In this document: positions 1-52,821 of the stretch, in pieces
How positions within the stretch are numbered: position 1 is the stretch's first letter
How the letters are laid out: each line of letters starts with the position of its first letter
NCBI GenBank assembly: GCA_028748975.1
Contig: JAQTPI010000002.1
Coordinates: 51,213 to 115,212, forward strand
Direction: 5' to 3'
Origin: Patescibacteria group bacterium
GTDB taxonomy: Bacteria > Patescibacteriota > Patescibacteriia > UBA2196
DNA length: 64,000 nt
Position numbers and translations under genes: made by a program
Notes under the pieces: generated by a model
What the model was told of the DNA's origin: nothing
Seen by the model: the letters and a program-made list of their open reading frames with translations, nothing else
The model's database searches: none

Positions 1-1950
1 ATGCCAATATATAACCACGACCATGAAAATGAAGTAACATATTTTGCCGCGACTAACTTCAGAAACCAGATGAAGAAATTTGGCATTAAAACCGATGACC
101 GCCGGCGGCATATGTATGTTTTGGGTAAAACCGGTTCAGGTAAAACCACCCTCTTGGCCAACATGGCCCTGCAGGATATTGAACGCGGCCACGGAGTCGC
201 CATCACTGACCCACATGGCGATGTTTTGAATTCGCTTTTGGATTTTATTCCGAGCAATCGCGTCAACGATGTGGTCTATTTTAATCCTTCAGACACCGAA
301 CACCCCATTGCCTTTAATGTTTTGGAAAACGTCAATCCGGACCATAAACATCTGGTGGCTTCGGGACTGATGAGTGTTTTTAAAAAGATTTGGGCCAATC
401 TGTGGTCGGCCAGAATGGAATATATTTTGAATAATACTATTTTGGCTCTTTTGGATTCTCCGGGCAATACGCTCCTCGGAATTATGCGCATGCTTTCGGA
501 CAAGGATTTTCGCAGAAAAATTGTGGATAACATCAATGATCCGGTGGTGAAATCTTTTTGGATTAATGAATACGCCAATTACAGCGATAAATTCCGGCAG
601 GAAGCCATCGCGCCAATCCAAAATAAGGTTGGCCAGTTTTTGTCTTCTTCTATTATTCGAAATATTGTCGGCCAGCCCAAGTCCACCATTGACCCGCGAA
701 AAATTATTGATGAGGGCAAGATTTTGCTTTTGGATTTGTCTAAAGGAAAAATTGGCGAAGATAATTCGGCACTACTGGGCGCGATGATGGTAACCAAGTT
801 GTGGCTCGCGGCGATGTCGCGGGTGGATATTCCAGAAAAAGAGCGGTTGGATTTTTATCTCTATGTTGATGAATTCCAGAATTTTGCCACCGAATCTTTT
901 GCCGACATTTTGTCGGAGGCGAGAAAATATCATTTGAATTTGCTAATCGCGCATCAATACATCAACCAGTTGATTTCGCCGGATTCCAAAAAAGTGAAAG
1001 AAGCGGTGTTTGGCAACGTGGGCACCTTGGTTTGTTTTCGGGTCGGCGCGGCTGACGCGGAAGAGTTGGTGACTGAATTTGAGCCGACTTTTGAAGAAAA
1101 TGATCTGGTTAACATCGGCAAGCATGAGATTTTTTTGAAATTAATGATTAATGGCATGGCCACTTCGCCCTTTACGGCCAAGACCTTGCCGCCATTGTCG
1201 CAGGGTAAAGAAAATGATAATCGTGATAAAATTATCGCGGTTTCGCGCGAACGCTATTCCAATCCGCGCGCGGAAGTGGAAGAAAGAATCGTGCGCTGGA
1301 GCGGCATGGAAAAAATGTTTAAAGGCACGGCGGAAGAAGAATATATCGACGAAGAAGAACTTGTTTTTAAAGAAGGCAAAGTTAAGAAAGAAAAACCCAG
1401 CGGGCCGAGTTTTAAGGCCTATTGCGATAATTGCGGCGCCACCACGGCGATTAATTTTATTCCGGATTTAAGCAAGGCGATTTTTTGCAAGAATTGTCTG
1501 CCGGAATTTAAGCGCGGCGCCATTGATCCTCGGAAATTGAAATCAAAAAATCCGCATCTGAAGGCGGAGATTGAGAAATATCAGAAGAGCTTAGTGACAG
1601 CGAATAGTGAAGAGGGAAGAGAGAAGAGCGAACCCGCTTCATCAGTGAGTAAACCGGAAACTGGAAATCAGAAAACAGAAATTGGAAATCAGAAACCAGT
1701 CGTTGCAATTAGTGAAGAGAGAATAGAGAAGAGTGAAAAGAAAATAGAAATTAAAAAGAAAGAAATTACACCGGAGCCGGCGCCAAAAAAAACCGCCAAG
1801 GCGAATTTTATGGCGGATAAAAGGGAAGAAGCGGAAGGGGTGAGTTTAGCGAATTTAAAAGATGATAATCGCGTAGTTGGTTTTAATAATCGGCGCGGTG
1901 GAACAGGAAAAAGTGTGAAGCCGGGGGAAGTGGTAAGGATTAAGGAATAG
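1..1950 (+). CDS. P-loop ATPase, TraD/VirD4 (type IV secretion coupling protein)-like, with C-terminal zinc ribbon and low-complexity tail
   Basis: Walker A GKTGSGKTT near N-terminus. hhhhDE-like YVDEFQNF. CDNCG...CKNC Cys4 near aa 475-498. Tail contains NQK tandem insert. ORF starts at window base 1, so the N-terminus may be incomplete. Confidence 0.5.
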   Translation: MPIYNHDHENEVTYFAATNFRNQMKKFGIKTDDRRRHMYVLGKTGSGKTTLLANMALQDIERGHGVAITDPHGDVLNSLLDFIPSNRVNDVVYFNPSDTEHPIAFNVLENVNPDHKHLVASGLMSVFKKIWANLWSARMEYILNNTILALLDSPGNTLLGIMRMLSDKDFRRKIVDNINDPVVKSFWINEYANYSDKFRQEAIAPIQNKVGQFLSSSIIRNIVGQPKSTIDPRKIIDEGKILLLDLSKGKIGEDNSALLGAMMVTKLWLAAMSRVDIPEKERLDFYLYVDEFQNFATESFADILSEARKYHLNLLIAHQYINQLISPDSKKVKEAVFGNVGTLVCFRVGAADAEELVTEFEPTFEENDLVNIGKHEIFLKLMINGMATSPFTAKTLPPLSQGKENDNRDKIIAVSRERYSNPRAEVEERIVRWSGMEKMFKGTAEEEYIDEEELVFKEGKVKKEKPSGPSFKAYCDNCGATTAINFIPDLSKAIFCKNCLPEFKRGAIDPRKLKSKNPHLKAEIEKYQKSLVTANSEEGREKSEPASSVSKPETGNQKTEIGNQKPVVAISEERIEKSEKKIEIKKKEITPEPAPKKTAKANFMADKREEAEGVSLANLKDDNRVVGFNNRRGGTGKSVKPGEVVRIKE

Positions 1951-2692: not shown

Positions 2693-4624
2693 ATGCCTTC
2701 TAATCCCTTTCAAATTGAAGCCAGCCCGAGAAAAATTAAGAATCACCATTTGAGCCGTTTTGGCAGAGGTTCTGGCGGCGAAATTTTTGATTACAGCGGC
2801 GCCAAAGAGGGGCTGAAAGCCTCTATCAGTAATCGGCGAGTGGCTTATTTTTTTCTATTGGCCGCGGTAGTTGGGGCGGTGTTTTTGGGGCGTGTTTTTT
2901 ATTTGCAAATCATCCGGGGCGATTATTGGTTTCAAATTGCCGAGGGCAACCGCATTCGAGTGGAGGAAACTTTGGCGCCGCGCGGCATAATTTTTGACAG
3001 AGAGATGGAACCGTTGGTAAAAAATAAACCGAATTTTGTGTTGTCTTTTATACCGGCTGAATTTATCAATCAAAATTCGGAAGTGGAACCCTTTTTGAAA
3101 TTTTTAACAACAGAGATACCGGAAGTTAATGTTAATGAAGTTAAAGACGAAATTAGCCAAGCCAAACAATATTCGGGCGAAGACGAAGAAATTTTGGATA
3201 ACATTCCTTATGAACGGGCGCTCAGTTTGATGATGAAAATAAAAATTTGGCCGGAGTTGAGATTGTCATATTTTTCCAGCCGAAATTATGTGGCGGCTGA
3301 TTATGGACTTTCCAATGTTTTGGGTTATTTGGGAAAAATTGGACCGGAAGAGTGGCCAGGCTTAAAAAATCAGGGCTATCTTTTGATTGAGCGCGTGGGA
3401 AAAACCGGTTTGGAGCGTATTTATGAAAAAGAATTGCGCGGTAACCCAGGTGAAAAAAAGATAGAAGTGGATGTTAAGGGCAATATTAAAAAAATAATCA
3501 GCGAGAGCGAGCCGAAAAAAGGCGCCAATTTGGTCTTGGCTTTGGATGGAAATTTAAATCAGTTTTTAACAAGGCGTCTGTGCGCGGCGGCCGTGCCTTA
3601 CGGTGGCAAAGCCGCGGCCGTGGCGCTTAATCCCCAAAACGGAGAAATTTTAGCTTTGGTTTCCTGCCCGGTGTTTGACAATAATTTATTCAGTAACACC
3701 AAAATTAACAGTGAAAAAATAGAAGTGCTTTTAAATGACGCCAAACAGCCATTTTTTAATCGACCGATTCAGGGTGAATATCCGGCTGGTTCGGTTTTCA
3801 AACTGGTGATAGCGGCGGCGGGACTGCAGGAAAAAATTATTACTTCTTTGACAACGGTTTTATCGATTGGCGGATTAAAAATTGATCAATGGTTTTTTCC
3901 TGATTGGAAAGCTGGCGGGCATGGAATAACTAATGTTACTAAAGCCATTGCCGAGTCTATTAATACTTTTTTCTATTACGTGGGCGGAGGGTTTGATAAG
4001 TTTAGCGGTTTGGGTGTGGATAAAATTATTGAATATGCCAAAAAATTTCATTTTAATCAAAAATTAGGCATTGATTTGCCTGGTGAAAAGGAAGGATTTT
4101 TACCCAGTCGTGATTGGAAATTTCAGACTAAGGGCGAAGAATGGTATATTGGTGACACTTATCATCTAGCAATCGGACAGGGCGATTTGACCGTGACACC
4201 GCTTCAGGTTGCCGCCATGACTTCTTTTTTTGCCAATGGCGGAAGGCTCTATCAACCACACCTGGTCAAAGAATTTTTATTGGAGCGCGGAGAAAAACAA
4301 GAAGTTAAACCGATGATTTTGGAAAATGATATTATTGATCAAGAAAATATTGAGATTGTGCGGCGGGGCATGCGCCAAGCCGTGACCAGTGGCTCCGCTA
4401 AAATTCTTTTGGATTTACCGGTTAAGGCAGCGGCTAAAACCGGCACGGCCCAAGTTGGTGGTAATAAAAATCCACACGCTTGGTTTACTTCGTTTGCGCC
4501 ATTTGATAATCCAGAAATTGTTTTGACGGTTTTGATTGAGAATGGAGTGGAGGGAAGCGTGACGGCGGCGCCAGTGGTGAAGGATACTTTACAATTTTAT
4601 TTTAATAATAAAATTGTAAAGTAG
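2693..4624 (+). CDS. mrdA: penicillin-binding protein 2 (peptidoglycan D,D-transpeptidase)
   Basis: N-terminal transmembrane helix. SxxK (SVFK) and KTGT motifs. Length and domain order typical of class B PBP. mrdA versus ftsI cannot be strictly resolved from sequence alone. Confidence 0.75.
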   Translation: MPSNPFQIEASPRKIKNHHLSRFGRGSGGEIFDYSGAKEGLKASISNRRVAYFFLLAAVVGAVFLGRVFYLQIIRGDYWFQIAEGNRIRVEETLAPRGIIFDREMEPLVKNKPNFVLSFIPAEFINQNSEVEPFLKFLTTEIPEVNVNEVKDEISQAKQYSGEDEEILDNIPYERALSLMMKIKIWPELRLSYFSSRNYVAADYGLSNVLGYLGKIGPEEWPGLKNQGYLLIERVGKTGLERIYEKELRGNPGEKKIEVDVKGNIKKIISESEPKKGANLVLALDGNLNQFLTRRLCAAAVPYGGKAAAVALNPQNGEILALVSCPVFDNNLFSNTKINSEKIEVLLNDAKQPFFNRPIQGEYPAGSVFKLVIAAAGLQEKIITSLTTVLSIGGLKIDQWFFPDWKAGGHGITNVTKAIAESINTFFYYVGGGFDKFSGLGVDKIIEYAKKFHFNQKLGIDLPGEKEGFLPSRDWKFQTKGEEWYIGDTYHLAIGQGDLTVTPLQVAAMTSFFANGGRLYQPHLVKEFLLERGEKQEVKPMILENDIIDQENIEIVRRGMRQAVTSGSAKILLDLPVKAAAKTGTAQVGGNKNPHAWFTSFAPFDNPEIVLTVLIENGVEGSVTAAPVVKDTLQFYFNNKIVK

Positions 4625-4653
4625 TTTTTGCCCAACTTTTTATAATTGCAGAC

Positions 4654-4987
4654 GCCACTTTCTTTGGACAAAGATTTTCTTTCGTTCTTTTTTTAGAAAA
4701 AAGAACCAAAAAAGCGCCGCTGGCAAAAAAGCTTCCACAAAATCGGCTGCGTCCTCGCTAAACCCGTTAACTCCTTGTTCCGCCTCTCCGCCGGCTGGCG
4801 GATCGGCGGAACTTCGTCAGACAGAAGCGGGTTTTTCAGCGCTGCGGCACTGAATCGCTCCGACTTAGCTCGATTTTGTCTGGAACCTTTTTTGAGGCGG
4901 CAGTCGCAACGACGGTTTATTTCTCGTGTTTTGTTAATTGTGTTTTGAGTTTTGTTTTAATGTTTTTATGTTTTAATGCTTTCATGG
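4654..4987. repeat. Element A copy 1 (about 330-nt structured intergenic repeat, candidate ncRNA)
   Basis: Collinear with 18890-19187. Begins gccactttctttggacaaagatttt. Helices gttccgcc/ggcggaac and ttcag/ctgaa are conserved with compensatory changes. Ends in gttttaatg(ttt)tatg motif. Confidence 0.6.
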
Positions 4988-5016
4988 TATAATAAAGTAA
5001 ATAATTGTGAATATCT

Positions 5017-6264
5017 ATGCTTAAAAATAAAACAAAAGACGCAACCTTAAGATTTCCCAAAGGTTTTCTTTGGGGTACGGCCACCGCCGCTCATCAGGTG
5101 GAGGGAAATAATATCAATTCCGATTGGTGGCAATATGAAGAACAGGGAAAAATACTTTATCGCTCTGGGCGTGCCTGTGACAGTTATAATCGTTTTAAAG
5201 ACGATCATGATTTGATTGAAAAAATGAATAATAATGTTTATCGCTTGTCAATTGAATGGGCGCGGATTGAACCGGAAAAGGGAAAATTTGATCATGAGGC
5301 GATGAAACATTACGTGGAAGTTCTTTCTGATTTGAAGAAACGCGAGATAAAAGTCATGCTGACGTTGCATCATTTTTCCAGTCCCACCTGGATCGCCGCT
5401 TTGGGCGGCTGGGCCAATCATTTTGTGGCTATTTATTATTTTCGGCGTTATGCCAAATTTGTTTTGGAAAATGTCGGCGGTTTGGTTGATTTTTGGGTAA
5501 CCATCAACGAACCGGGGGTTTATACCGACCAGGGTTATGATAAGGGCATCTGGCCACCCATGCAGGTTAATTACTGGAAGGCATTTTTGTGTTATGTTAA
5601 TATGGCGTTCGCTCATCGCTTGGTCTATCGCCTGATTCATAAGAAAATTCGAAACGCGCAAGTGGGTTTGGCCATGAATGTGATGTCTTTTGCTTCTTAC
5701 CGCAAACACAAGCTGATGGAACTTCTTTTTGTCCATTTTGCCGACCGCTTTGTTAACCATTCTTTTTATGATTTAACCAAACACAAGCATGATTTTTTAG
5801 GTATTAACTATTATTTTCGCGTGCGTCTCAAACAAAAAGGCCACAGTTTGGTGCCAGAAGTGGAAGACGTGACCGAAGGCGAACGCGAACTTTCCGATGT
5901 CGGCTGGCTGATTTATCCGCATGGGCTTTATGATGTTTTAATGGATTTGGCCGATTTTAAAGAGCCGATTTATATCACCGAAAACGGTATCGCGGCGGAA
6001 GATGATACTAAGCGTGAAAAATTTATAGTCAATCATCTGGCGGAAATTTATCACGCCATCAAAGGCGGGGTGGATGTGCGCGGTTATTTTCACTGGTCGC
6101 TACTTGATAATTTTGAATGGGAAAAAGGCTTTAGTCCAAAATTCGGTTTAGCCAGCGTTGACCATAAAACTTTTGAGCGCAAACTTAAACCCAGCGGAAT
6201 TTTATATGGCGAAATCGCTAAGAATAATTGCATTGCGGAGGAATTGGTGAAGAAATATCAGTAA
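5017..6264 (+). CDS. glycoside hydrolase family 1 (beta-glucosidase/beta-galactosidase type)
   Basis: Acid/base TINEP and nucleophile YITENG motifs of GH1. N-terminal FLWGTATAAHQVEG signature. Confidence 0.85.
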   Translation: MLKNKTKDATLRFPKGFLWGTATAAHQVEGNNINSDWWQYEEQGKILYRSGRACDSYNRFKDDHDLIEKMNNNVYRLSIEWARIEPEKGKFDHEAMKHYVEVLSDLKKREIKVMLTLHHFSSPTWIAALGGWANHFVAIYYFRRYAKFVLENVGGLVDFWVTINEPGVYTDQGYDKGIWPPMQVNYWKAFLCYVNMAFAHRLVYRLIHKKIRNAQVGLAMNVMSFASYRKHKLMELLFVHFADRFVNHSFYDLTKHKHDFLGINYYFRVRLKQKGHSLVPEVEDVTEGERELSDVGWLIYPHGLYDVLMDLADFKEPIYITENGIAAEDDTKREKFIVNHLAEIYHAIKGGVDVRGYFHWSLLDNFEWEKGFSPKFGLASVDHKTFERKLKPSGILYGEIAKNNCIAEELVKKYQ

Positions 6265-7370: not shown

Positions 7371-7498
7371 TTCCCAAACAACCCCTCCGTCCCGTTGCTA
7401 CGGGACACCTCCCCTTCGAAAGGGGAGGATAGTGACGGCGTTATCCCCTCCTTTCGAAGGAGGGGTGGCCGATAGCAATCGGCCGGGGTGGTTGTAAA
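7371..7498. repeat. P-family palindromic repeat cluster (cccctcctttcgaaggagggg hairpins)
   Basis: Inverted GC-rich stem-loops. The same units recur at 13081-13112, 33017-33150, 38161-38270, 41821-41960, 44007-44110 and 46145-46190. Confidence 0.7.
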
Positions 7499-18880: not shown

Positions 18881-18889
18881 TCTTTTTAT

Positions 18890-19187
18890 GCCACTTTCTT
18901 TGGACAAAGATTTTTTGCCACCTTTTTATAAAGGTGGCGCCAAAAGCGCCGCTGTAAAAAAGTTTTGACAAAAGCGGCCTCGTCGTCACTAATTTTGTTA
19001 ACTCCTTGTTCCGCCTCGTTGCGCTCAACTCGGCGGAACTGCGTCAGACAGAAGCAAAATTTTTTTGACTGCGGTCAAAAATCGTTCCGACTCAGCTCGC
19101 TTTTATACCAAAACTTTTTTAAGGCGGCAGTCACGACGATAACGTAATTGTTTTAATGTTTTCATGTTTTAATGTTTTAATGCTTTT
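18890..19187. repeat. Element A copy 2
   Basis: Collinear with 4654-4987. Occupies the whole mreB-mreC spacer. Confidence 0.6.
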
Positions 19188-19973
19188 ATGTCTCACCGTC
19201 GAACTTTTTACATTATTTTGGCAATAGTTATTATCCTGGGCGGGCACTATTTGGGTTTGTGGCGGCCAATTGAGCGGCTGGCGACCAGAGCTTTGAGTTA
19301 TCCTTTAACCGCCGGCTATTCCTGGGGCCGTGATTTTTTTTCTTTTTTTGGCCGTTTCCAAAATAACGCCGATCTAAAAAAAGAAAACCAAGATCTAAAA
19401 GAACGAACAGCGGTTTTGGATGGAGAAATAATTTCTCTGAAGGAAGCCCTGCGCCAGAAAGGCATAACCGATGAGCAATTGGAATTTTTAAAGCAAGAAA
19501 AATTAAAAGCGGTTTTGGCGCGGGTGATTACTCGAGGCGTGGAAAATAATCCTAACCAGCTGATTATCGATAAGGGCGCGCGTGATGGGATTAAAAATGG
19601 TTTGGTAATTTTGGGCCGGGGCGGAGTGGTGGTTGGCAGGGTGACAAGAGTTGAAGACACCAGCGCCCAGATTTTACTTTTAACCGATACAAGCGTGGAG
19701 ATGGGCGCGGCAGATGTTGATGGCGGGCTTTTGGGCGTTGTTAAAGGCAATAAAGATTTAAGCTTGCGCCTTAATTATGTTTTGAAAGAGAAAAAAATAA
19801 CTAAAGGCGATATCATCATAACTTCCGGCGAGAAAGATTTGATACCGGCCGGACTTTTAATCGGAGAAATTGACCAGGTTTTTGAAGATGAGCGGGAAAT
19901 TTTTAAATCCGCTCGTTTGACGCAGCCGGTTGATGTTGCCAATACGGATATTGTGAGTGTAATTTTATTTTGA
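19188..19973 (+). CDS. mreC: rod shape-determining protein MreC
   Basis: N-terminal transmembrane helix, coiled coil, MreC beta-domain pattern. Operon position. Confidence 0.8.
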   Translation: MSHRRTFYIILAIVIILGGHYLGLWRPIERLATRALSYPLTAGYSWGRDFFSFFGRFQNNADLKKENQDLKERTAVLDGEIISLKEALRQKGITDEQLEFLKQEKLKAVLARVITRGVENNPNQLIIDKGARDGIKNGLVILGRGGVVVGRVTRVEDTSAQILLLTDTSVEMGAADVDGGLLGVVKGNKDLSLRLNYVLKEKKITKGDIIITSGEKDLIPAGLLIGEIDQVFEDEREIFKSARLTQPVDVANTDIVSVILF

Positions 19974-23498: not shown

Positions 23499-26225
23499 AT
23501 GTCTTTTTTGACCAAAATTTTCGGCGATGCCAATAAAAGAGTGACGGATAAACTGCGCGGGCGCGTGGAGGGGTTTTTAGTTTGGGAAGAAAAAGTAAAA
23601 AAATTAAAAGAAGAAGATTTTAAGAAAAAAACAGAAGAATTTAAGAAAAAACTGGCGGACAAAGAGTTTGAGGAACAGCAAAAAATTATGGACGAGATTT
23701 TGCCGGAGTGTTTTGCCCTGGTGCGCGAAGCGGCGCGGCGCACTTTGGGACAGCGCCACTATGACGTGCAGTTAGTTGCCGGTATGGTTTTGCATCAGGG
23801 TAATATCGCGGAAATGAAAACCGGTGAAGGCAAAACTTTGTCAGCCACGGCCGCGGTATATCTAAACGCGCTCTCCGGACGCGGGGTGCATGTCATCACT
23901 GTTAATGATTATTTGGCGCGGCGCGACATGGTCTGGATGGGACAGATTTATGATTATCTTGGTTTGACGGTTGGTTGCTTAAATCATGAAAGTGCTTTTT
24001 TATATGATTCGGAATTTAAAGGAAATCAGAAATCAGAAATCAGAAATCAGGGAGAAAAATTAGATATCAAACGCGACTCTGTCGGAGCTTTTAAAGTGGT
24101 GGAGGAATTTTTGCGGCCGGTGGAAAGAAGATTGGCGTACGCGGCGGACATTACCTATGGCACCAACAACGAATATGGTTTTGATTATCTGCGCGACAAC
24201 ATGGTGGCGGATTTGGAACAGAAAGTTCAGCGCGAACTGCATTACTCAATCGTGGATGAAGTTGACTCCATTTTGATTGATGAAGCGCGGACGCCACTGA
24301 TTATTTCGGCGCCAGACAGCGAGGCGACGGACAAATATCGCCAGTTTGCCGAATTGGTTTCGCGCTTGAGTGAAGGCGAGGATTACAATATTGATGAAAA
24401 AATGCGCGCGGCCACCTTGACGGAAGAGGGAATTAAAAAGATGGAAAAAATGCTCGGCGTGGAAAATATTTATACCGACCGCGGGGTGCGCGAAGTCCAT
24501 CACATTGAAAACGCGCTTAAGGCGCGCGTGCTTTTCAAATTAGACCGCGATTATGTGGTCAAAGACGGGGAAGTGATTATCGTGGATGAGTTTACCGGAC
24601 GACTGATGCTTGGCCGGCGTTATTCTGACGGGCTTCATCAGGCGATTGAGGCCAAGGAAGGCGTAAAAATTCAGCAGGAATCGGTGACCATGGCCACCAT
24701 CACTTTTCAAAATTATTTCCGCATGTATAAAAAATTGGCGGGCATGACGGGCACGGCGGCCACGGAAGCGGAAGAATTTGCCAAAATTTATAATCTTGAC
24801 GTGATTCAGATTCCAACCAATAAGCCGATGATTCGGGAAGATCTGGGGGATATAATTTTAAAAACAGAAAAAGAAAAATACGGCGCTATCGTGGAAGAAA
24901 TAAAAACGCGCCACCAATTGGGCCAGCCGGTTTTGGTCGGCACAATTTCCATTGAAAATAATGAACGTCTGGCCGAATTGCTTTCCCGCGAGGGTGTGGA
25001 ACACCGCGTCTTGAATGCCAAACAGCATGAAAAAGAAGCGGAAATTATCGCACAAGCCGGCCGTCTTAAGGCCGTAACCATTGCCACCAACATGGCTGGC
25101 CGCGGCGTGGACATAATTCTTGGTGGCAATCCTTCAACAGAAGAAGAACAGGAGGAAGTGAAGAAATTGGGCGGACTTTGTGTCATTGGCACCGAGCGGC
25201 ACGAAAGCCGGCGCATTGACAATCAACTGCGCGGCCGCACTGGGCGCCAGGGCGACCCGGGTTCTTCCCAATTTTTTGTTTCCATGGAAGATGATTTAAT
25301 GCGTATTTTCGGCGGGGAGAGAATGAAAAATTTGATGAACAGTTTGGGTTTGCCCGAGGGCATGCCGATTAAAAACAGGATGATTTCCAATTCCATTGAA
25401 AAAGCCCAACAAAAAGTAGAGGGGCATAATTTTGATATCAGAAAACACCTGGTGGAGTATGACGATGTGATTAATAAACACCGGGAAGTGATTTATAAGA
25501 AACGGAATCAAATACTAACAACTGACAATAAACAACTAACAACTGACAATAAACAACTAACAACTGACAATAAACAACAAATTTTATCATACGTGAAAGA
25601 AGAAATTGAGACAGTGGTTAAATTTCATACGCAAAGCGAAAATAATTGGAACTTGAAAGAAATCTATGAAGTGATGGATACGGTTTTTCCATTAACAGGC
25701 GAAGAAAAGATAGATTATGAAAGCATTAAAGCATTAAAACATGAAAACAAAACAGAGCAAGAAAAATTAATAGATTATCTTTTTGGCTTGGCGGAAAAAC
25801 AATATAATTTATTGGAAAATAAAATAAACAGCGATGAAAATTTGAAAAAGCAATTTAACGGCGCGGAACCGATGCGTTTGGTGGAACGGTCAATATTACT
25901 CCGCGCGATTGATATGCTGTGGGTGGAACACATTGACCAAATGGATCACATGCGCACGGGCATCGGACTCGTGGGTTATGGGCAAAAAGATCCGCTGGTG
26001 GAATATAAGCGCGAGGCCTACCGGATGTTTAATGATCTTCTAACTAATATCAGAAAACAGGTGGTATACAGTATTTTCAAAATATCTATTACTAACAACC
26101 AACAAACAACTAACAACTTACAACAACCATCAGCAGTTGATAAAAATCAAAAACACAAAGTCGGCAGAAACGATCCATGCCCATGCGGATCTGGCAAGAA
26201 ATACAAAAAGTGCTGTGGAAAATAA
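23499..26225 (+). CDS. secA: preprotein translocase subunit SecA (with lineage-specific low-complexity inserts)
   Basis: DEAD-like motor motifs. C-terminal zinc-binding [13 protein letters not shown]. Inserts at 24021-24053, 25512-25578, 25717-25750 and 26089-26128. Confidence 0.9.
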
Positions 26226-32964: not shown

Positions 32965-33189
32965 AGTTATTTAAAAGCTACGAATGTACTAATAAAACGA
33001 ATGTACGAATCCGTCGTTATCCCCTCCTTTCGAAGGAGGGGTGCGAGCGAGAGCGAGCGGGGTGGTTGTGGTGAAATACTTTTTACAACCCCTCCCTCCG
33101 ACTGCTGTCGGAGACCTCCCCTTCGAAAGGGGAGGATAACCAACGCACAATTAGTATATTCGTACGATTCGTAAATTCGTAGATATTTT

Positions 33190-34311
33190 ATGGAAACATT
33201 ACTTGTTCTCAACCTTGGTTCCACTTCCTTCAAATACGAATTATTCAATGCGGAAGATTTGGCGACCATAAATAAAGGCCAGTATGACCTACAATTAACA
33301 ATTAATAGACAACAGACAACAGACAACAGACAACCGAGCGACGAACTACAGGAAGAAGTGGACAGACTTTTTCGCGAGGTTTTACGCCAAGCTGGTGATA
33401 TTAGCGAACTAATGGCGGTTGGCCACCGCGTGGTCCACGGCGGCGACAAATTTTTTGCCACGCAGAAAATTAAGGAAAATGAAATTACGGAATTGGAACA
33501 GCTGAATTCTTTGGCGCCGTTGCACAATCCTTTCAATCTTGCCGGCATCAAGGCGGCCTTTGGCTATCTGCCAGAGACGCCAAATTTCGCTGTTTTTGAC
33601 ACGGGCTTTTTTAAAGATTTGCCGGAAGCGGCTAAAGTTTACCCGATTCCATACGAATATTATGAAAAAGGAATTCATAAATTTGGCTTTCATGGCATTT
33701 CGCATAAATTCGCAGCGGAAGAAGCAGCCAAAGAAATTAATAAGCCTTTGGAAAAAATAAATGTCATCAGCGTGCACCTCGGCGGCGGCGCTTCTGTTTC
33801 CGCCACGCACCATGGCAAACCAATTGACACCTCCATGGGTTTTACGCCAATGGAAGGACTGATGATGGCGACGCGGCCGGGCGATTTAGATCCGGGGGTA
33901 ATAATACAGATGCTCACAGATTTATTACAGATGGACACAGATACACAGATAAATGACGCAAAAACAATTATAGAAAAAATAAATTATATCTTAAATTATG
34001 AATCCGGCGTTAAAGGCATTTGCGGGCAAACCGATTATCTGGAACTTTTAAAAGCCGCGACCTTTGACCCCAGAGCCAAACTGGCTTTTGATATGTTTAT
34101 TAACCGGATTAAAAAATATATCGGCGCCTATGCCGCTTTGCTTGGCGAAGTTGATGCCCTGGTTTTCACCGGCAAAATCGGCGCGGGCAAACCGGAGACA
34201 AGAAAAAAGATTTGTGATAAAATGGGTATACTTAAAGACGTGCCAGTAATAGTGGTGGAGCCGCACGAGGAGTTGGAAATAGCGAGAGAAATTGCAAGTA
34301 AAAACAGATAG
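33190..34311 (+). CDS. ackA: acetate kinase
   Basis: LVLNLGSTSFKYELF N-terminus. ASKHS-family motifs. Carries low-complexity inserts at 33291-33337 and 33905-33952. Confidence 0.85.
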   Translation: METLLVLNLGSTSFKYELFNAEDLATINKGQYDLQLTINRQQTTDNRQPSDELQEEVDRLFREVLRQAGDISELMAVGHRVVHGGDKFFATQKIKENEITELEQLNSLAPLHNPFNLAGIKAAFGYLPETPNFAVFDTGFFKDLPEAAKVYPIPYEYYEKGIHKFGFHGISHKFAAEEAAKEINKPLEKINVISVHLGGGASVSATHHGKPIDTSMGFTPMEGLMMATRPGDLDPGVIIQMLTDLLQMDTDTQINDAKTIIEKINYILNYESGVKGICGQTDYLELLKAATFDPRAKLAFDMFINRIKKYIGAYAALLGEVDALVFTGKIGAGKPETRKKICDKMGILKDVPVIVVEPHEELEIAREIASKNR

Positions 34312-34856: not shown

Positions 34857-36698
34857 ATGTTAAGTATCAAAATCGCCGGACCCGCGGGGTTCGGAATAAA
34901 AGTCACTGGTTCAATTTTAGCCAAGGTATTTTTACGCCTTGGATATTCTGTTTTTGCCTACACCGAATATCCGTCATTAATTCGTGGCGGGCATAACACT
35001 TTTCAAGTGGACGTTAATGGAGAATGTCATCCCGAGGACTCCGACATCACGTCGGAAGACGAGGGATCTCGTAAGTTTTCTGGTGTCAACTCTCCCAGCT
35101 CCAAAGTGGACATTCTCATCGCTTTGACAGGTGAAGCTATAGAAAAAGAAAAAGATAATTTAAAGAAAGACAGCCTGGTCATTTGTGATGATACATTAAA
35201 ACATGAAAGCATTAAAACATTAAAACAAAAGGGAACAAATATTATTGATATTCCCTTAATTGAATTCGCCAAAAAAAATGGCGGAGAATTAATGAAAAAT
35301 ACAGTCGCGCTTGGAGCTTTGTTTGCCATCATCGATAATGTCATTCCGAGGAGCGGGGCGACGAGGAATCTCGTCGAAACATTAAATAAAGTACTCGAAG
35401 ATACTTTTGGTCATAAGGGCGTCGTGGCAGAACAAAACGTAAAAGCAGCGGCAGAGGGCTACGAGTGGCTAAAAAACAATAAAGACAAAATAAAATCTAC
35501 GAGATCCCTCGTCATTCCGACTGCGGCCGGAACTCCTCGGGATGACATTTTACTGCTCATCTCTGGCAACCAGGCCTGCGCTCTCGGCGCCGTGGCCGCC
35601 GGCTGCCAACTCTATTCTGCCTACCCCATGACTCCGGCCACGGAAATTTTGCATTATTTGGAAGCCAAACAAAAAGAAACAAAAATGATTGTGCACCAGC
35701 CCGAAGATGAAATTGCCGCCATTCACGCCGCGCTGGGCGCTTCTTTTGCCGGCGCGAGATCCGCAGTAGGCACTTCTGGCGGCGGTTTTGCCTTAATGAC
35801 CGAGGGACTGTCCTTGGCAGGGCAATTAGAGCTTCCTTTGGTCATTTTTGAGGTTATGCGCCCGGCTCCGGCCACGGGACTACCCACCTGGACCGAACAA
35901 GGCGATTTATCTTTTGTCCTTAATGCCGGCCATGGTGATTTTGCCAGAGCAATTCTGGCTCCCGGCAATCCGGCTGAATGTTTTGAATTAACTCAAAAAG
36001 CCTTCAACCTCGCTGACCAGTTTCAAATTCCGGTTTTTGTCATGACTGATAAATTGCTTGGTGAATCATATTACACCACTGATGAAAAAATATTTAATAA
36101 TATTGAAAAAGTGAATCGGGGAAAAATTATTGGTAATCAGAAATTAGAAATCGGAAATCAGGGACTAAACGAATTATTTGCTCGCTACAAACTGGAAAAA
36201 GATGGCGTGTCACCGCGCACCATACCAGGTACTGAAGGCGGCGAATATGTTGCCAATTCTGATGAACACGATGAGTTTGGAATCTCCAGCGAAAGCGCGG
36301 AAATAAGAAAAGAACAAATGGACAAACGCCTGAAAAAACTGGCGGAATTGCAAAAAGAAATTCCTCTGCCGACTTTGTATGGCCCGAAAGACGCGAAGAC
36401 GACTTTGGTTTGCTGGGGTTCAATGCTGGGAGCTTGTTTGGATACATTAAAACATGAAAGCATTAAAGCATTAAAGCAAAATAACATAAACATCCTGCAT
36501 TTTTCCTATATTTATCCGCTGCCAATGGGATTAACGGAATTTTTAAAGAAATTTAATAATTTAGTGCTGGTGGAAAACAACGCCAGCGGCCACTTTGGCA
36601 AACTCTTGCGCCAAGAAACCGGCATAGAGATTAAAGATAAATTATTAAAGTATGATGGGAGACCTTTCTGGTCAGACGAGATAGCCAAACTTTTATAA
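34857..36698 (+). CDS. 2-oxoacid:ferredoxin oxidoreductase, fused gamma-alpha subunit (carries six in-frame repeat insertions)
   Basis: Gamma domain N-terminus (AGPAGFGIKVTGSIL) followed by alpha domain (GNQACALGAVAAGC...YPMTPATEIL). Inserts at 35035-35081, 35193-35229, 35339-35374, 35500-35547, 36131-36162 and 36443-36476. Confidence 0.8.
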   Translation: MLSIKIAGPAGFGIKVTGSILAKVFLRLGYSVFAYTEYPSLIRGGHNTFQVDVNGECHPEDSDITSEDEGSRKFSGVNSPSSKVDILIALTGEAIEKEKDNLKKDSLVICDDTLKHESIKTLKQKGTNIIDIPLIEFAKKNGGELMKNTVALGALFAIIDNVIPRSGATRNLVETLNKVLEDTFGHKGVVAEQNVKAAAEGYEWLKNNKDKIKSTRSLVIPTAAGTPRDDILLLISGNQACALGAVAAGCQLYSAYPMTPATEILHYLEAKQKETKMIVHQPEDEIAAIHAALGASFAGARSAVGTSGGGFALMTEGLSLAGQLELPLVIFEVMRPAPATGLPTWTEQGDLSFVLNAGHGDFARAILAPGNPAECFELTQKAFNLADQFQIPVFVMTDKLLGESYYTTDEKIFNNIEKVNRGKIIGNQKLEIGNQGLNELFARYKLEKDGVSPRTIPGTEGGEYVANSDEHDEFGISSESAEIRKEQMDKRLKKLAELQKEIPLPTLYGPKDAKTTLVCWGSMLGACLDTLKHESIKALKQNNINILHFSYIYPLPMGLTEFLKKFNNLVLVENNASGHFGKLLRQETGIEIKDKLLKYDGRPFWSDEIAKLL

Positions 36699-37555: not shown

Positions 37556-37771
37556 TCATCTTTTATTAATGATGGCTGAAATGTATGAAACATCAATGAA
37601 AAGACCGATAATCGTGACTATAATTAGGAGAGGAAGCCAGCTGCCTCCAATTATCACGCATAGATATATTACCAGAACGGTTCTTGGGAGAAAGAAAGCA
37701 ACAATTAACCAAAAACAGATTCCCCAAAAAGTAAACATAGTTTCCTCCTTCTTGTTTGTGTGAATGTTCAA
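37556..37771 (-). CDS. small membrane protein
   Basis: Two hydrophobic helices. Hairpin terminator at 37497-37523. Confidence 0.3.
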   Translation of the reverse strand: MNIHTNKKEETMFTFWGICFWLIVAFFLPRTVLVIYLCVIIGGSWLPLLIIVTIIGLFIDVSYISAIINKR

Positions 37772-37807
37772 TTTAATCTAAAATAACCCTATCATATCTA
37801 AAATTTT

Positions 37808-38161
37808 ATGTCAAACCCTAAAATAGTAAAAGACAAAATTAAATTGTTGGAAATTGAAGAAATGGCAAAAAATCGTTTTGGCAACCTGGTTAAGGCCGTG
37901 GTTGATGTGGAACAAAATTTAATGGCGCTGGATGCCGAAATGCATGTGGACGAAGAACAGTTGCTTTTGAGTTCCGGTTCCAAACAAGAAAATCTTTGGG
38001 GTATAAATTTGTATCCAGAATTTTTTGGCAGGCCGGATTTTGTGGAATTTGATTCCATGATTAATCTGCGTCCCAATCAAAACAATCGCAGTCGGGGAGT
38101 GGAGAGTGTGGAAGTACAAAAAAAGATTATTGAAATTGTAAATAATTTAATAGAAAAATAG
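37808..38161 (+). CDS. hypothetical protein
   Basis: 117-aa ORF. Its promoter region is duplicated at 43020-43065. Confidence 0.45.
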   Translation: MSNPKIVKDKIKLLEIEEMAKNRFGNLVKAVVDVEQNLMALDAEMHVDEEQLLLSSGSKQENLWGINLYPEFFGRPDFVEFDSMINLRPNQNNRSRGVESVEVQKKIIEIVNNLIEK

Positions 38162-38278
38162 TATCCCCTCCTTTCGAAGGAGGGGTGGCCGATCGCAATC
38201 GGCCGGGGTGGTTGTGGTAAAATGTTTTTACAACCCCTCCGCGCCTCCCCTTCGAAAGGGGAGGATAATATAACGATT

Positions 38279-38650: not shown

Positions 38651-38998
38651 TTAAAACCCAAGGAGTTGTAATGTTAACTTTGCAGCATCTTCCTTTTCGT
38701 CCACTTTATGGGTTGCCCCGTGGGCCAGTAATTCGTCATTAGAACGGGGCGTACCGGAAGAGGCGATAATGATTTTTAAACCAGATCGTGATAGTTTTTC
38801 TACAAAAGGGACGGTGCTCAGTGTTTCATTGTTGATACAGGCGTCTATAATCGCCGCGGCGATGTTAAGGTTTTCTTCAAAAAAGTGATTACACTCATAC
38901 ACCCTGGTAAATCTAACGACTTCAACCTTGCCAGAAAGTATTTTGTTAATCTTTTCGAAGTAAACATCTTCATCTTCTACAACTAGTACCTTTTTCAT
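38651..38998 (-). CDS. stand-alone receiver (REC)-like domain protein, paralogue 1
   Basis: KVLVVEDED acidic pocket. IIDAC (phospho-Asp position). IIASSG and HKVDK. 115 aa. Confidence 0.45.
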   Translation of the reverse strand: MKKVLVVEDEDVYFEKINKILSGKVEVVRFTRVYECNHFFEENLNIAAAIIDACINNETLSTVPFVEKLSRSGLKIIIASSGTPRSNDELLAHGATHKVDEKEDAAKLTLQLLGF

Positions 38999-39051
38999 CC
39001 TATTTTCCTCCTTGGTTTTTATAGGTTAATAAATTATTTGATTAATAAATA

Positions 39052-39080
39052 AGTATAGCACAATTAAAATTTTCTGTCAA
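39052..39080 (-). promoter_or_regulatory. minus-strand promoter ttgaca-17-tatact for REC paralogue 1
   Basis: Read on the reverse complement. About 90 percent identical to 42436-42464. Confidence 0.5.
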
Positions 39081-39157
39081 ACCGTGGTGAAAATAGAAAC
39101 TCGTTAACCCGTTAACTCGTTAATAAAATAATAATTAATTTTTTATATATTAAATCT

Positions 39158-41776: not shown

Positions 41777-41983
41777 GCCAGAGTAATGTCATCCCGAGGA
41801 GTAGCAACGACGAGGGATCTCGCGGTTATCCTCCCCTTTCGAAGGGGAGGTGGTCCGATGTCGCATCGGACCAGAGGGGTTGTAATGTAGCGACGACAAC
41901 CACCCCGGCCGATTGCTATCGGCCACCCCTCCTTCGAAAGGAGGGGATAGCGACCGCCTAGTTAAAAAATAAATAAAAAAAAT

Positions 41984-42019: not shown

Positions 42020-42382
42020 TTAAAACCCAAGAAATTGCAGTGCTAATTTCACCGCCTTGTATTTGTCCGCTTTGTGCGTCGCGCCGGCAGTGATTAATTC
42101 ATCGTTGTTTAAGGAAGAACCGGAAGCAGCGATGATTGGCTTTTTAAATCCGGATTTGACAATTTTTTCGATGAGCGGCATGGAATCTGGTTCGTCGCCT
42201 TCCACACAAGCGTCCATGATAATCACTTCAACGTCAGGATTGGCAAAAAAGAGATTTTCTCCTTCTTTCAACGTCTTGGCATGAAGAATTTCAATTTCAC
42301 TGTTCTTGTCGTGAAATTTGAATACTCGCTCCATTGGCGAAAAATCACTGTCCCTGTCTTCCACCACCAATACCTTTTTCAC
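42020..42382 (-). CDS. stand-alone receiver (REC)-like domain protein, paralogue 2 (GTG start)
   Basis: N-terminal MKKVLVVED and C-terminal LQFLGF conserved with paralogue 1. Middle region diverged. Confidence 0.45.
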   Translation of the reverse strand: MKKVLVVEDRDSDFSPMERVFKFHDKNSEIEILHAKTLKEGENLFFANPDVEVIIMDACVEGDEPDSMPLIEKIVKSGFKKPIIAASGSSLNNDELITAGATHKADKYKAVKLALQFLGF

Positions 42383-42435
42383 TTAATTTTCCTCCTTGGT
42401 TTTTATGGGTTAATAAATTATTTGATTAATAAATA

Positions 42436-42464
42436 AGTATAGCATAACTAAAATTTTCTGTCAA
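42436..42464 (-). promoter_or_regulatory. minus-strand promoter ttgaca-17-tatact for REC paralogue 2
   Basis: Near-identical to 39052-39080. Confidence 0.5.
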
Positions 42465-42470
42465 TTAGTT

Positions 42471-42961: not shown

Positions 42962-43130
42962 GTTACCCCCCTCTTTTTGTCGTTTGCCCGTTCTTGGGCG
43001 GTTGTAAAAATGAACTATTTTATATAAAATAACCCTATCATATCTAAAATTTTTTGTCAAACCATTCGCTATCCAGTCTGTCATTTTTCACTTTTCATTA
43101 TTCATTTTTCATTATTTATAATACAAACCT

Positions 43131-44003: not shown

Positions 44004-44311
44004 TTAGTCATCCCCTCCTTTTCAAGGAGGGGCAAGGGGTGGTTATTTATTTCGCCGTTAGGCGCGTCGTTTCCCCCCTCTCCTTAACAAGGAGAGGTCG
44101 GGGTGAGGTAGATCGCCAATAGGCGCATCTAATTATGTCATCCCCGCCTTAGGCGGAAATTTGGAAAAACTCGCCCAACCAGCGGGTTTTGTTTTTAGAA
44201 GTATGATTTTTTATGGAACCATTCGCGCGAATGGGTAAATGGATTTTTTTCTAAAATAAAAAAAATCCCCGTCCCAAGTTTTTCCAGGGGCGGGGAAGAT
44301 CATTTTTGTGA

Positions 44312-50559: not shown

Positions 50560-50757
50560 TTTCCTCCGCCGCGCCGCGGAAAAAAACGGAGCAGAAAAAC
50601 GGAGCAGGGGATTGTCAAATTTAAAAATCAAAACCCCAAACCCTAATCCTTGGTTAATTTAGCTATAGCTAATTTAACCAAGGATTGAAAAACAGTAAAA
50701 TTAATAATGTTTGATTAATTCTGCTATAGCAAATTTAATCAAAGATTGAAAAAATAA
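50560..50757. repeat. Intergenic module R1 with 36-bp near-perfect palindrome (50648-50683) and second palindrome (50710-50744)
   Basis: tttcctccgccgcgccgcgg leader. ccttggttaatttagctatagctaatttaaccaagg. tttgattaattctgctatagcaaatttaatcaaag. Confidence 0.7.
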
Positions 50758-52011: not shown

Positions 52012-52098
52012 CCCTATTGCTTTTCTAAGTTGACTAACCATCATTTTTTTTATTCCCGGTTTAGTGCTAAAATTAAACCATCATAACCACCACAAAAA

Positions 52099-52285
52099 TT
52101 TCCTCCGCCGCGCCGCGGAAAAAAACGGAGCAGAAAAAACAGAGCAGGGGATTAAAAAAATTAAAATAATTAAATCCCCAAATCCTTGGTTAATTTAGCT
52201 ATAGCTAATTTAACCAAGGATTGAAAAACAGTAAAATTAATAATGTTTGATTAAATTTGCTATAGCAGAATTAATCAAACATTAA
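52099..52285. repeat. Intergenic module R2 (palindromes at 52184-52219 and 52244-52280)
   Basis: Same leader and palindromes as R1. Confidence 0.7.
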
Positions 52286-52345
52286 AAATAACATAAAAAA
52301 ATCATATTCTCTAATTCGCGCGAATAGGCGAATAGTTAAAAAAAC

Positions 52346-52684: not shown

Positions 52685-52687
52685 GTA

Positions 52688-52812
52688 TTTCCTCCGCTGC
52701 GGCGCGGCGCAAAAAAACGAAAAAAAAACGGAGCAGGGGACTAAAAAAATTAAAATAATCCAAAACCCTAATCCTTGGTTAATTTAGCTATAGCTAAATT
52801 AACCAAGGATTT
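52688..52812. repeat. Intergenic module R3 (perfect 36-bp palindrome 52773-52808)
   Basis: ccttggttaatttagctatagctaaattaaccaagg. Confidence 0.7.
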
Positions 52813-52821
52813 AAAAAATAT

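Follow-up and report, generated by a model that had tools for sequence, protein, structure and literature searches.

Element A is a genuine family of non-coding repeats of ~250 nt with a strongly conserved fold, and it has spread into the intergenic gaps of one narrow clade of Patescibacteria. The family was previously uncatalogued, while the type of object to which it belongs, the structured interspersed intergenic repeat, is already well known. We found at least seven copies, distributed over six loci and three related organisms; two of them are in the window, the 64-kb stretch of DNA that was analysed. In our estimate, the chances are somewhat better than even (probability about 0.55) that Element A is, like the ERIC, Correia and REPIN repeats, a structured intergenic repeat that moves or recombines, and that it is probably transcribed as part of operons. 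For RNA biology, it provides a well-supported fold of ~220 nt that is new to Rfam and contains 33 covarying pairs; its reach is limited by a very narrow distribution so far. Patescibacteria have genomes of ~1 Mb, on which a strong pressure towards small size is assumed to act. This clade nonetheless tolerates structured insertions of 250–300 nt in essential operons such as mreBCD. Element A is a concrete case for asking how a repeat spreads without a recognisable transposase, and how downstream translation continues when a 4-nt junction is split in the absence of a Shine-Dalgarno (SD) sequence.

Copies in the window and in related organisms

In the window, copy 1 occupies positions 4654–4916 and copy 2 positions 18890–19140. 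The two copies are collinear (nhmmer E about 1e-36), with a mean column identity of 79% over the extended region of a MAFFT alignment. With either copy as the query against the 64-kb window, nhmmer recovered its counterpart with E-values between 5e-36 and 9e-36. A covariance-model search of the window with the filters off scored copy 2 at 242.8 bits and copy 1 at 221 bits, and gave at most 28 bits elsewhere (self-antisense). No further copy was detected in the window by nhmmer, by blastn with a word size of 7, or by the covariance model with the filters off. Each copy also matches its own opposite strand in nhmmer, indicating a long internal inverted repeat. The initial annotation had described two collinear copies at 4654–4987 and 18890–19187; both are present as placed and are collinear by MAFFT. 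Its extent for copy 1 holds from 4654 to about 4916, and the part from 4917 onward has to be removed from the element. This segment (4917–4995), which contains GTGTTTTGTTAATTG..., T-rich octamers and TGGTATAAT, is ancestral spacer, since an element-less relative (L016) carries CTTGTGTTTTGTTAATTGGGTTTTGGGTTTTG...TGCTATAAT in the same spacer. The features of both copies are collected in Table 1.

Table 1. Features of the two window copies of Element A, with positions numbered along the window.
Feature	Position	Strand	Remarks
Copy 1, 5' block ACGCCACTTTCTTTGGACAAAGATTTT	4652–4678	+	Small hairpin 4661–4674; 25-nt block identical in copy 2
Copy 1, hairpin H0, GTTCTTTTTTT AG AAAAAAGAAC	4684–4707	+	Two unrelated stem alleles among copies, both of which pair
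Copy 1, P1 5' arm	4716–4758	+	Partner 4857–4901; self-reverse-complement nhmmer match; RNAalifold helices 2–4, 12 covarying pairs
Copy 1, inner domain	4760–4834	+	P1a 4760–4768 with 4826–4834; P2 hairpin 4777–4812
Copy 1, internal loop	AACTCCTT at 4769–4776, TTCGTCAGACAGA at 4813–4825	+	Strands invariant in 6 of 7 copies
Copy 1, hairpin P3	4835–4854	+	Apex CTGCGG 4842–4847, C(UGCG)G as RNA, invariant
Copy 1, P1 3' arm and 3' end	4857–4916	+	Arm 4857–4901, then ...GGCGGCAGTCGCAACGACGG; ACGACG end common to most copies
Copy 1, ancestral spacer outside the inserted core	4917–4995	+	GTGTTTTGTTAATTGTGTTTTGAGTTTTG module; (TGTTTTAA)n array 4953–4986 (tandem repeat call)
Extended -10-like TGGTATAAT	4985–4993	+	Upstream of GH1 (start 5017)
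Copy 2, 5' block ATGCCACTTTCTTTGGACAAAGATTTTTT	18888–18914	+	Hairpin 18897–18910; begins 8 nt past the mreB stop codon (18878–18880)
Copy 2, hairpin H0, GCCACCTTTTT ATA AAGGTGGC	18916–18939	+	
Copy 2, core	18948–19128	+	P1 18948–18989 with 19084–19128; P1a 18991–18999 with 19053–19061
Copy 2, inner parts of the core		+	Internal loop 19000–19007 and 19040–19052; P2 19008–19039; P3 19062–19081, apex CTGCGG 19069–19074
Copy 2, 3' end AGTCACGACGAT followed by a U-rich tail, AACGTAATTG(TTTTAATG)n	19129–19190	+	Tandem repeat, 5.4 copies; tail runs into the mreC start codon, 19188–19190

Copies beyond the window were sought with an exact pattern derived from the conserved internal loop, TAACTCCTT-N20-50-GTCAGACAGAAG. 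Among the 185,579 species-representative genomes of GTDB, this pattern retrieved no copies; its two matches were both due to chance, one lying inside a coding region and the other being unrelated. The same pattern gave six matches in the JGI metagenomes. Four of these (L010, L011, L012 and L014) are true copies, all from sample 3300029288, with covariance-model scores of 230–255 bits, L012 lying on the reverse strand; the remaining two (L013 and L015) are chance matches. The covariance model R1, constructed from six of the copies, gives 221–255 bits for the true copies, and nothing else exceeds 28 bits. A seventh copy (L023), from JGI 3300037067, scores 189.5 bits and lies downstream of a gene for a PBP2 that is 76% identical to that of the window. 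Sample 3300029288 also holds a relative of the window organism (L004) with an MreC 77% identical to that of the window, and both copy-bearing JGI metagenomes contain close relatives of the window organism. Three patterns were run against viral contigs: the internal-loop pattern had no matches, and the other two had only matches that fail the covariance model. Phage and plasmid collections gave no blastn match, and the literature available for searching contained nothing on MITE-like or structured repeats in Patescibacteria.

Pairwise identity is 69% between copies 1 and 2, 86% between copy 2 and L014, 82% between copy 2 and L012, 88% between L010 and L011, and 80% between L023 and L010. The pair occupying the same site between mrdA and the GH1 gene, copy 1 and L023, is only 67% identical. 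Judged from these values, the similarity of the copies is governed by neither host nor locus.

Secondary structure and covariation

The fold was predicted by RNAalifold on MAFFT alignments, was fitted to no model, and comprises 74 predicted pairs. From the 5' side, hairpin H0 is followed by P1, an imperfect stem of ~45 bp with small bulges that closes the internal loop and the two hairpins P2 and P3; P1a is an inner helix. The internal loop is asymmetric and near-invariant, with AACUCCUU opposite U-K-CGUCAGACAGA. The apex of P3 is a C(UGCG)G tetraloop that is invariant in all seven copies, and five of the eight pairs in its stem covary. Across six copies, 96.2% of the cells are paired and 29 of the 74 pairs are doubly changed, as compared with 13.5 ± 2.3 in shuffled controls (0 of 500 reaching the observed value) and 3–9 in slid registers. 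Inclusion of the seventh copy brings the pairs with double compensatory changes to 33 of 74, with about 96% paired. The compensatory pairs therefore exceed both the shuffled and the slid-register controls, as is required of a structured RNA in general. Single-sequence folds are also much more stable than shuffles (z of -4.6 to -6.7). The substitution pattern shows that the predicted fold of Element A is under selection.

Individual helices illustrate this variation. P1a occurs as CCC/GGG, UUU/AAA, GUC/GAC and AAC/GUU. P2 covaries once L023 is added, changing from GUUCCGCC/GGCGGAAC to GUUUUGC/GCAAAAC, and its apical extension is variable. The two self-pairing stem sequences of H0 are GTTCTTTTTT and GCCACCTTTTT. 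The 5' block (block 1) is present in five of the seven copies, being absent from L010 and L014, and its small hairpin carries a compensatory change from C-G to T-A in L012. Stem differences between copies 1 and 2 are mostly compensatory. From these two copies, the initial annotation had proposed a secondary structure conserved by compensatory change, and the seven copies support this proposal much more strongly. The helices that it named are real: GTTCCGCC/GGCGGAAC is P2, whose supposedly variable loop is a covarying apical helix; TTCAGCG..CACTGAA, replaced by TTTTTGAC..GTCAAAAA in copy 2, is P3 around the invariant CTGCGG; and the identical hairpin TCTTTGGACAAAGA is that of the 5' block. The ~45-bp P1, the covarying AAACCCGTT/AGCGGGTTT versus AATTTTGTT/AGCAAAATT, and H0 were absent from it. 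It had also held that a lack of homologues together with random variation would speak against the structure; homologues do exist, and they vary in a compensatory manner.

A protein-binding surface, either for a mobilising enzyme or for a host factor, is the most likely meaning of the invariant loop sequences. We also observe that invariant loops combined with covarying stems are typically seen in functional RNAs, and less so in selfish repeats that are decaying. A coding reading was considered and rejected: a short ORF that begins MPLSLDK opens at the block-1 ATG in four copies, its ends vary, copy 1 has no start codon for it, and the substitutions are not codon-like. Indels that are not multiples of three, together with the covarying stems, also speak against a coding role.

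Several features bear on which strand folds. Read on the + strand, the alignment contains 24 G.U cells versus 7 A.C cells; two U.G pairs are otherwise invariant, and one of them becomes C-G in L023. The P3 apex reads C(UGCG)G on the + strand, a UNCG-type loop with a C-G closing pair, and C(CGCA)G on the other. A UNCG-type tetraloop closed by C-G is an RNA-specific stabilising motif. Six of the seven copies run in the same direction as the genes beside them; L014 is antisense to its neighbours, ybaB and recR. In each of the seven cores, the minus strand has a minimum free energy lower by 3–11 kcal/mol; the consensus-structure energies are about equal. We favour the + strand at roughly two to one, and only tentatively, because the energies slightly favour the minus strand, opposite to the wobble-pair and tetraloop evidence.

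Genomic context, ends and the proposed insertion mechanism

Pfam confirmed the genes flanking the window copies as PBP2/MrdA (2693–4624) and a GH1 glycosidase (5017–6264), and as MreB (17840–18880; MreB_Mbl, E = 1.8e-136) and MreC (19188–19973). Copy 1 thus follows mrdA and copy 2 lies in the mreB-mreC spacer, as initially annotated. The genes of the window are almost all on the + strand, and no transposase, integrase or reverse transcriptase occurs among its large ORFs. In relatives, the corresponding junctions differ in content. Between mreB and mreC, L004 and L005 (MreC 77% identical) have GAATAA-TTTT-ATG, a spacer of 4 nt; L024 (MreC 69%) has a spacer of 8 nt; and L006 (MreC 76%) has an unrelated palindromic filler of 82 nt. 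In L007, a different gene lies upstream of mreC. The mrdA-GH1 gene order is kept in relatives. The mrdA-GH1 spacer of L016 (PBP2 74%) measures 104 nt and includes the GTGTTTTGTTAATTG... module and TGCTATAAT without the core, and L019–L022 (PBP2 61%) have about 190 nt of an unrelated AT-rich palindrome there and no element. In L023 (PBP2 76%), a complete copy occupies the junctions that copy 1 occupies in the window, flanked by TTTTTATAAT-N7 on the left and ACGACG-TTTAT... on the right, and a partial second copy (3' fragment AACTTTTTTAAGGCGGCAGCTACA) lies beside it. Of the four copies from sample 3300029288, which belong to one related organism, one lies between an HlyD-like gene and an ABC ATPase gene, one between the genes for a 128-aa membrane protein and a CofE-like protein, one downstream of the gene for a 253-aa membrane protein, and one (L014) between ybaB and recR. 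No orthologues of the genes flanking L010–L014 were found in the window.

Since orthologous sites are empty, the neighbours are unrelated, one copy is antisense and copy similarity is incongruent with host and locus, Element A is better understood as a dispersed insertion than as a regulator of peptidoglycan or rod-shape genes. Its position beside rod-shape and peptidoglycan genes, to which the initial annotation had attached meaning, does not keep that meaning when the relatives and the other copies are considered; on this comparison of sequences, the association is coincidental. A cis-regulatory RNA of mre and mrd would accompany one gene class across relatives, and the copies do not.

Five copies begin with R-Y-G-CCRCTTTC, in which the triplet is ATG in copy 2, L012 and L023, ACG in copy 1 and GTG in L011, and most cores end in ...GGCGGCAG-N4-7-ACGACG. 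An inverted repeat of ~45 nt is formed by the P1 arms, which start ~60 nt in from the conserved 5' end and ~15 nt in from the 3' end. This long inverted repeat is internal, block 1 and H0 being outside it, and the termini show no inverted repeat of the canonical kind. In copy 2, L010 and L011, a tail, (A)ATTG(TTTTAATG)n, follows and stops precisely at the start codon of the next gene; L012 carries a degenerate form. Since relatives have only TAA-TTTT-ATG at the mreB-mreC junction, the tail of copy 2 arrived with the insertion or after it. TTTT(T)ATG stands on both sides of copy 2 and of L012, either because the stop-start junction was duplicated over 7 nt or because the motif belongs to the element. 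No duplication is visible at the mrdA-GH1 site when filled (copy 1 and L023) and empty (L016) versions are compared, and none is visible for L011.

No promoter or terminator of Element A's own is conserved among the copies. Two isolated motifs were noted, TTGACA in the + arm and, in five copies, an extended -10-like TGGTATAAA in the minus strand; neither has a partner hexamer. The source genome does not use Shine-Dalgarno sites: an SD-like 4-mer precedes 3 of 38 genes, which equals the random rate, and the 12 nt before the ATG are 84% A+T.

The copies sit in short gaps between genes, for the most part stop-to-start junctions within operons, and in the reading that we prefer Element A has colonised these gaps. 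The unit would move or be copied between sites, either by transposition through an enzyme encoded elsewhere or by recombination between copies. Because six of the seven copies are co-oriented with their neighbours and neither a promoter nor a terminator of its own was detected, the element is probably carried passively and co-transcribed with the host operon. In the transcript, the RNA would fold into the ~45-bp imperfect duplex that closes a three-way core. By analogy with ERIC and Correia repeats, this duplex may act as a natural RNase III-type site and as a protective 3' hairpin for the upstream message. The U-rich, ATG-bearing tail would allow initiation at the downstream gene to continue once a tight stop-start junction has been split, and insertions into essential operons may survive because the tail maintains downstream initiation in an SD-less genome. 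Several points weigh against this reading: no mobilising gene was found in the large ORFs of the window, the element lacks a canonical terminal inverted repeat, the target duplication is inconsistent, the strand evidence is divided, the invariant loops beside covarying stems suit a functional RNA better, and the seven copies come from three organisms only.

Relation to known families and alternative explanations

At the gathering thresholds of Rfam 15, only a tRNA passes in the window, and scans of both copies and four related loci in E-value mode returned only sub-threshold noise (GA-cis, mir-*, Histone3). The Rfam comparison suggested in the initial annotation thus matched no family. The weak likeness to GA-cis (RF02987) consists of a two-hairpin resemblance on the minus strand of Element A, including CCGCCGAG...CGAGGCGG. 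It scores 18–20 bits against a gathering threshold of 34.7, affects two of the six tested copies and covers under half of the element, and we attribute it to chance.

The closest known systems are repeats of comparable habit. Like Element A, ERIC (enterobacterial repetitive intergenic consensus) sequences and the Correia repeat-enclosed elements of Neisseria are non-coding imperfect palindromes of 100–300 nt, occupy transcribed intergenic regions, are polymorphic in site and form long hairpins in mRNA. They have been reported to alter mRNA processing and stability, through RNase III for Correia and RNase E for ERIC. Element A shares no sequence similarity with either family and differs in its asymmetric three-way core, its invariant loops and a 5' hairpin outside the long stem. 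Neither the TA duplication nor the terminal inverted repeats of Correia type were found in it, and its host is a Patescibacterium with a tiny genome, in which few copies have been found so far. REP sequences and REPINs resemble Element A in the compensatory conservation of their structure, in their intergenic location, in being vertically persistent yet dynamic, and in forming families common to related genomes. However, REPs measure 20–40 nt (REPINs ~100 nt), carry a GTAG head, form inverted doublets and reach tens to hundreds of copies, whereas Element A measures ~250 nt; no GTAG head occurs in its alignment and no RAYT-like ORF in the window. With MITEs, Element A has in common that it is short, non-coding and multi-copy, has filled and empty sites between relatives, and contains a long inverted repeat. 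Because this repeat is internal rather than terminal, Element A does not satisfy the strict definition and is not filed as a MITE; the signs of a target duplication differ between sites. The window's large ORFs yielded no parent insertion sequence with a transposase. An integron attC site was also rejected. Such sites are imperfect palindromes of 57–141 nt with R''/L''/L'/R' boxes (R' = GTTRRRY) and lie near intI, whereas Element A measures ~250 nt, its GTTAACT does not fit and no integrase is present in the window; moreover, its flanks are core housekeeping operons (mreBCD, ybaB-recR) and not promoterless cassettes.

Element A might instead be a cis-acting RNA cassette that benefits the host, acting as an intercistronic element for processing or stability, or as a module for translation re-start with the U-rich tail as a ribosome landing pad. 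We consider this rather unlikely. The invariance of the loops beside covarying stems and the termination of the tail, in four copies, at downstream start codons in a genome without SD sites are both in accord with it. Between copy 1 and L023, which share a site, 17 pairs have changed on both sides and still pair, versus 9 that are broken. Yet each of these two copies is closer to copies at other loci than to the other, and their differences may for that reason reflect replacement or gene conversion rather than compensation in place. Moreover, 4–8 nt suffices at the mreB-mreC junction of relatives, no shared trait links the genes beside the copies, and L014 is antisense to its neighbours, all of which argue against a host function at these sites.

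The repeat could also act at the DNA level, with single-stranded hairpins read by an HUH/Y1 enzyme, as a non-autonomous IS200/IS605-type or REP/RAYT-like element, possibly with a TnpB/IscB guide-RNA scaffold. The R-Y-G left flank before CCRC in five copies, the mrdA-GH1 site without a clear target duplication, the hairpin-rich architecture and the orientation bias, which follows the genes and so probably also replication, would all suit such an element. The conserved three-way structure of ~220 nt is, however, far larger than known Y1 recognition hairpins, and two features point to RNA, namely the invariant apex of UNCG type and the conservation of G.U pairs. No TnpA, TnpB or RAYT gene was found in the window, and Rfam gave no match to its HEARO or IS605-orfB models. 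We therefore hold this explanation to be unlikely.

A bolder proposal, to which we assign a low likelihood, is that Element A represents a new class of ORF-less mobile structured RNA. Its ~220-nt three-way fold, including the invariant internal loop and the UNCG-capped hairpin, would itself be active, for example as a ribozyme or as a scaffold for RNA-level or RNA-guided mobility, and the element would bring its own SD-independent re-start leader. If this were true, essential operons in ultra-small genomes could be split harmlessly, and the many locus-specific tandem arrays of 7–8 nt that precede start codons could record its repeated arrival at those sites.

A multi-copy gene for a trans-acting sRNA, transcribed from either strand, seems improbable. 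Single-stranded CUCCUU (anti-SD-like, + strand) or AAGGAG (SD-like, minus strand) would then pair with targets or with the ribosome. These unpaired motifs are invariant, and the minus strand offers the extended -10-like motif in five copies, the lower minimum free energy and the sub-threshold GA-cis matches. No promoter-terminator pair is conserved, however, the copies fill stop-start junctions inside operons, and the genome lacks SD pairing; the two copies that match GA-cis belong to one subfamily and score far below the threshold. Least probable by far, and contradicted by the observations, is a regulatory RNA dedicated to the genes for rod shape and peptidoglycan: both window copies adjoin the genes for PBP2 (mrdA) and MreB/MreC, but the same junctions are empty in relatives, four of the five additional copies lie beside unrelated genes, and no copy was found in more distant Patescibacteria with the same gene order.

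Element A also leaves a mark on genome assembly. In SRR22315508, Logan contigs approaching copy 2 from either side break off within it, and a contig encoding an 86%-identical PBP2 stops 8 nt past the stop codon; the element explains contig breaks at these loci.

Repeated modules in the mrdA-GH1 and mreB-mreC spacers

Element A, the structured non-coding repeat that follows mrdA (copy 1) and separates mreB from mreC (copy 2), is accompanied by a fragment of itself at one metagenome locus of a related organism. At positions 1890-1960 of this locus (L023), a full copy is adjoined by the 3' fragment of a second copy, AACTTTTTTAAGGCGGCAGCTACA, which is identical across 24 nt to the 3' arm of P1, the closing stem of the element, in another related locus (L014). 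The adjoining 3' fragment suggests that insertion or rearrangement occurred at the L023 site more than once. In independent Logan assemblies of the same organism as the window (SRR22315508), the contigs break within copy 2 on both sides; the contig carrying mreB (L030) ends 62 nt past the mreB stop codon, and the other (L001) starts at window position 19103. These breaks fit a core that is present more than once in that genome.

Another repeated module, GTGTTTTGTTAATTGTGTTTTGAGTTTTG, is present in the mrdA-GH1 spacer of both the window and L016, a related locus whose spacer lacks the Element A core. The mreB-mreC junction of a further relative, L006, is occupied by an 82-nt palindrome of which the GTGTTTTGTTAATTGTGTTTTGAGTTTTG module forms a part. 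Two different palindromic modules have therefore invaded the same stop-start junction independently.

Coordinates of the repeats and the tRNA (window positions unless a locus is named)
Feature	Location	Positions	Score
GTGTTTTGTTAATTGTGTTTTGAGTTTTG module	window	4926-4954	
GTGTTTTGTTAATTGTGTTTTGAGTTTTG module	L016	2048-2080	
GTGTTTTGTTAATTGTGTTTTGAGTTTTG module	L006	857-950	
tRNA	window	11113-11185	64 bits
Period 7/8 arrays (examples among many)	window	14091-14120, 17800-17836, 33149-33181, 39098-39123, 43081-43113	
Short tandem repeats within long ORFs	window	1609-1748, 24022-24050, 25514-25578, 25717-25749, 33307-33334, 35193-35227, 36445-36478	
GC-rich hairpin repeats	window	7378-7495, 33018-33139, 38162-38268, 41830-41950; also 13076, 36878, 44010-44109, 46149	
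Two further dispersed families	window	50562-50752, 52098-52288, 52687-52817; 37756-37817, 38973-39083, 42357-42467, 43002-43063	

Translation starts and short tandem arrays

No Shine-Dalgarno signal was detected at the gene starts of the window, such as those of mrdA (2693), GH1 (5017), mreB (17840), and mreC (19188). GGAG, GAGG, or AGGA occurs at -20 to -5 in 3 of the 38 window genes, which equals the random rate (9%). The 12 nt upstream of each ATG are 84% A+T, compared with 59% across the window.

Dozens of tandem arrays with a period of 7 or 8 nt are distributed in the window, each with a different unit sequence, and in many of them a start codon lies 3-34 nt downstream of the array end. 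The mreB ATG is reached by one such array, (ATGCTAAA)x4.6. Intergenic TAACTGA heptamer repeats of Beggiatoaceae are reportedly the subject of one paper (PMC4679880).

Short tandem repeats are also contained in long ORFs (TrwB-like, SecA, acetate kinase, and POR). SecA harbors a 21-nt repeat (x3.1) encoding LTTDNKQ, and an octamer array of the TGTTTTAA type, in reverse complement, lies within SecA and twice within the POR gene (coding ...TLKHESIKTLKQ...).

tRNA-associated and dispersed repeats

A 54-nt unit, repeated 1.9 times at 11145-11249, overlaps the 3' half of the tRNA and may represent a partial tRNA duplication, for example an integration scar. GC-rich hairpin families, exemplified by CCTCCCCTTCGAAAGGGGAGG and CCCCTCCTTTCGAAGGAGGGG with adjacent stems, recur in intergenic regions; at approximately 32979-33181, inverted octamer arrays (TACGAATG / AATTCGTA) flank such hairpin repeats on both sides. 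Two more dispersed families comprise repeats of 60-190 nt, some copies of which are 85-94% identical to each other.
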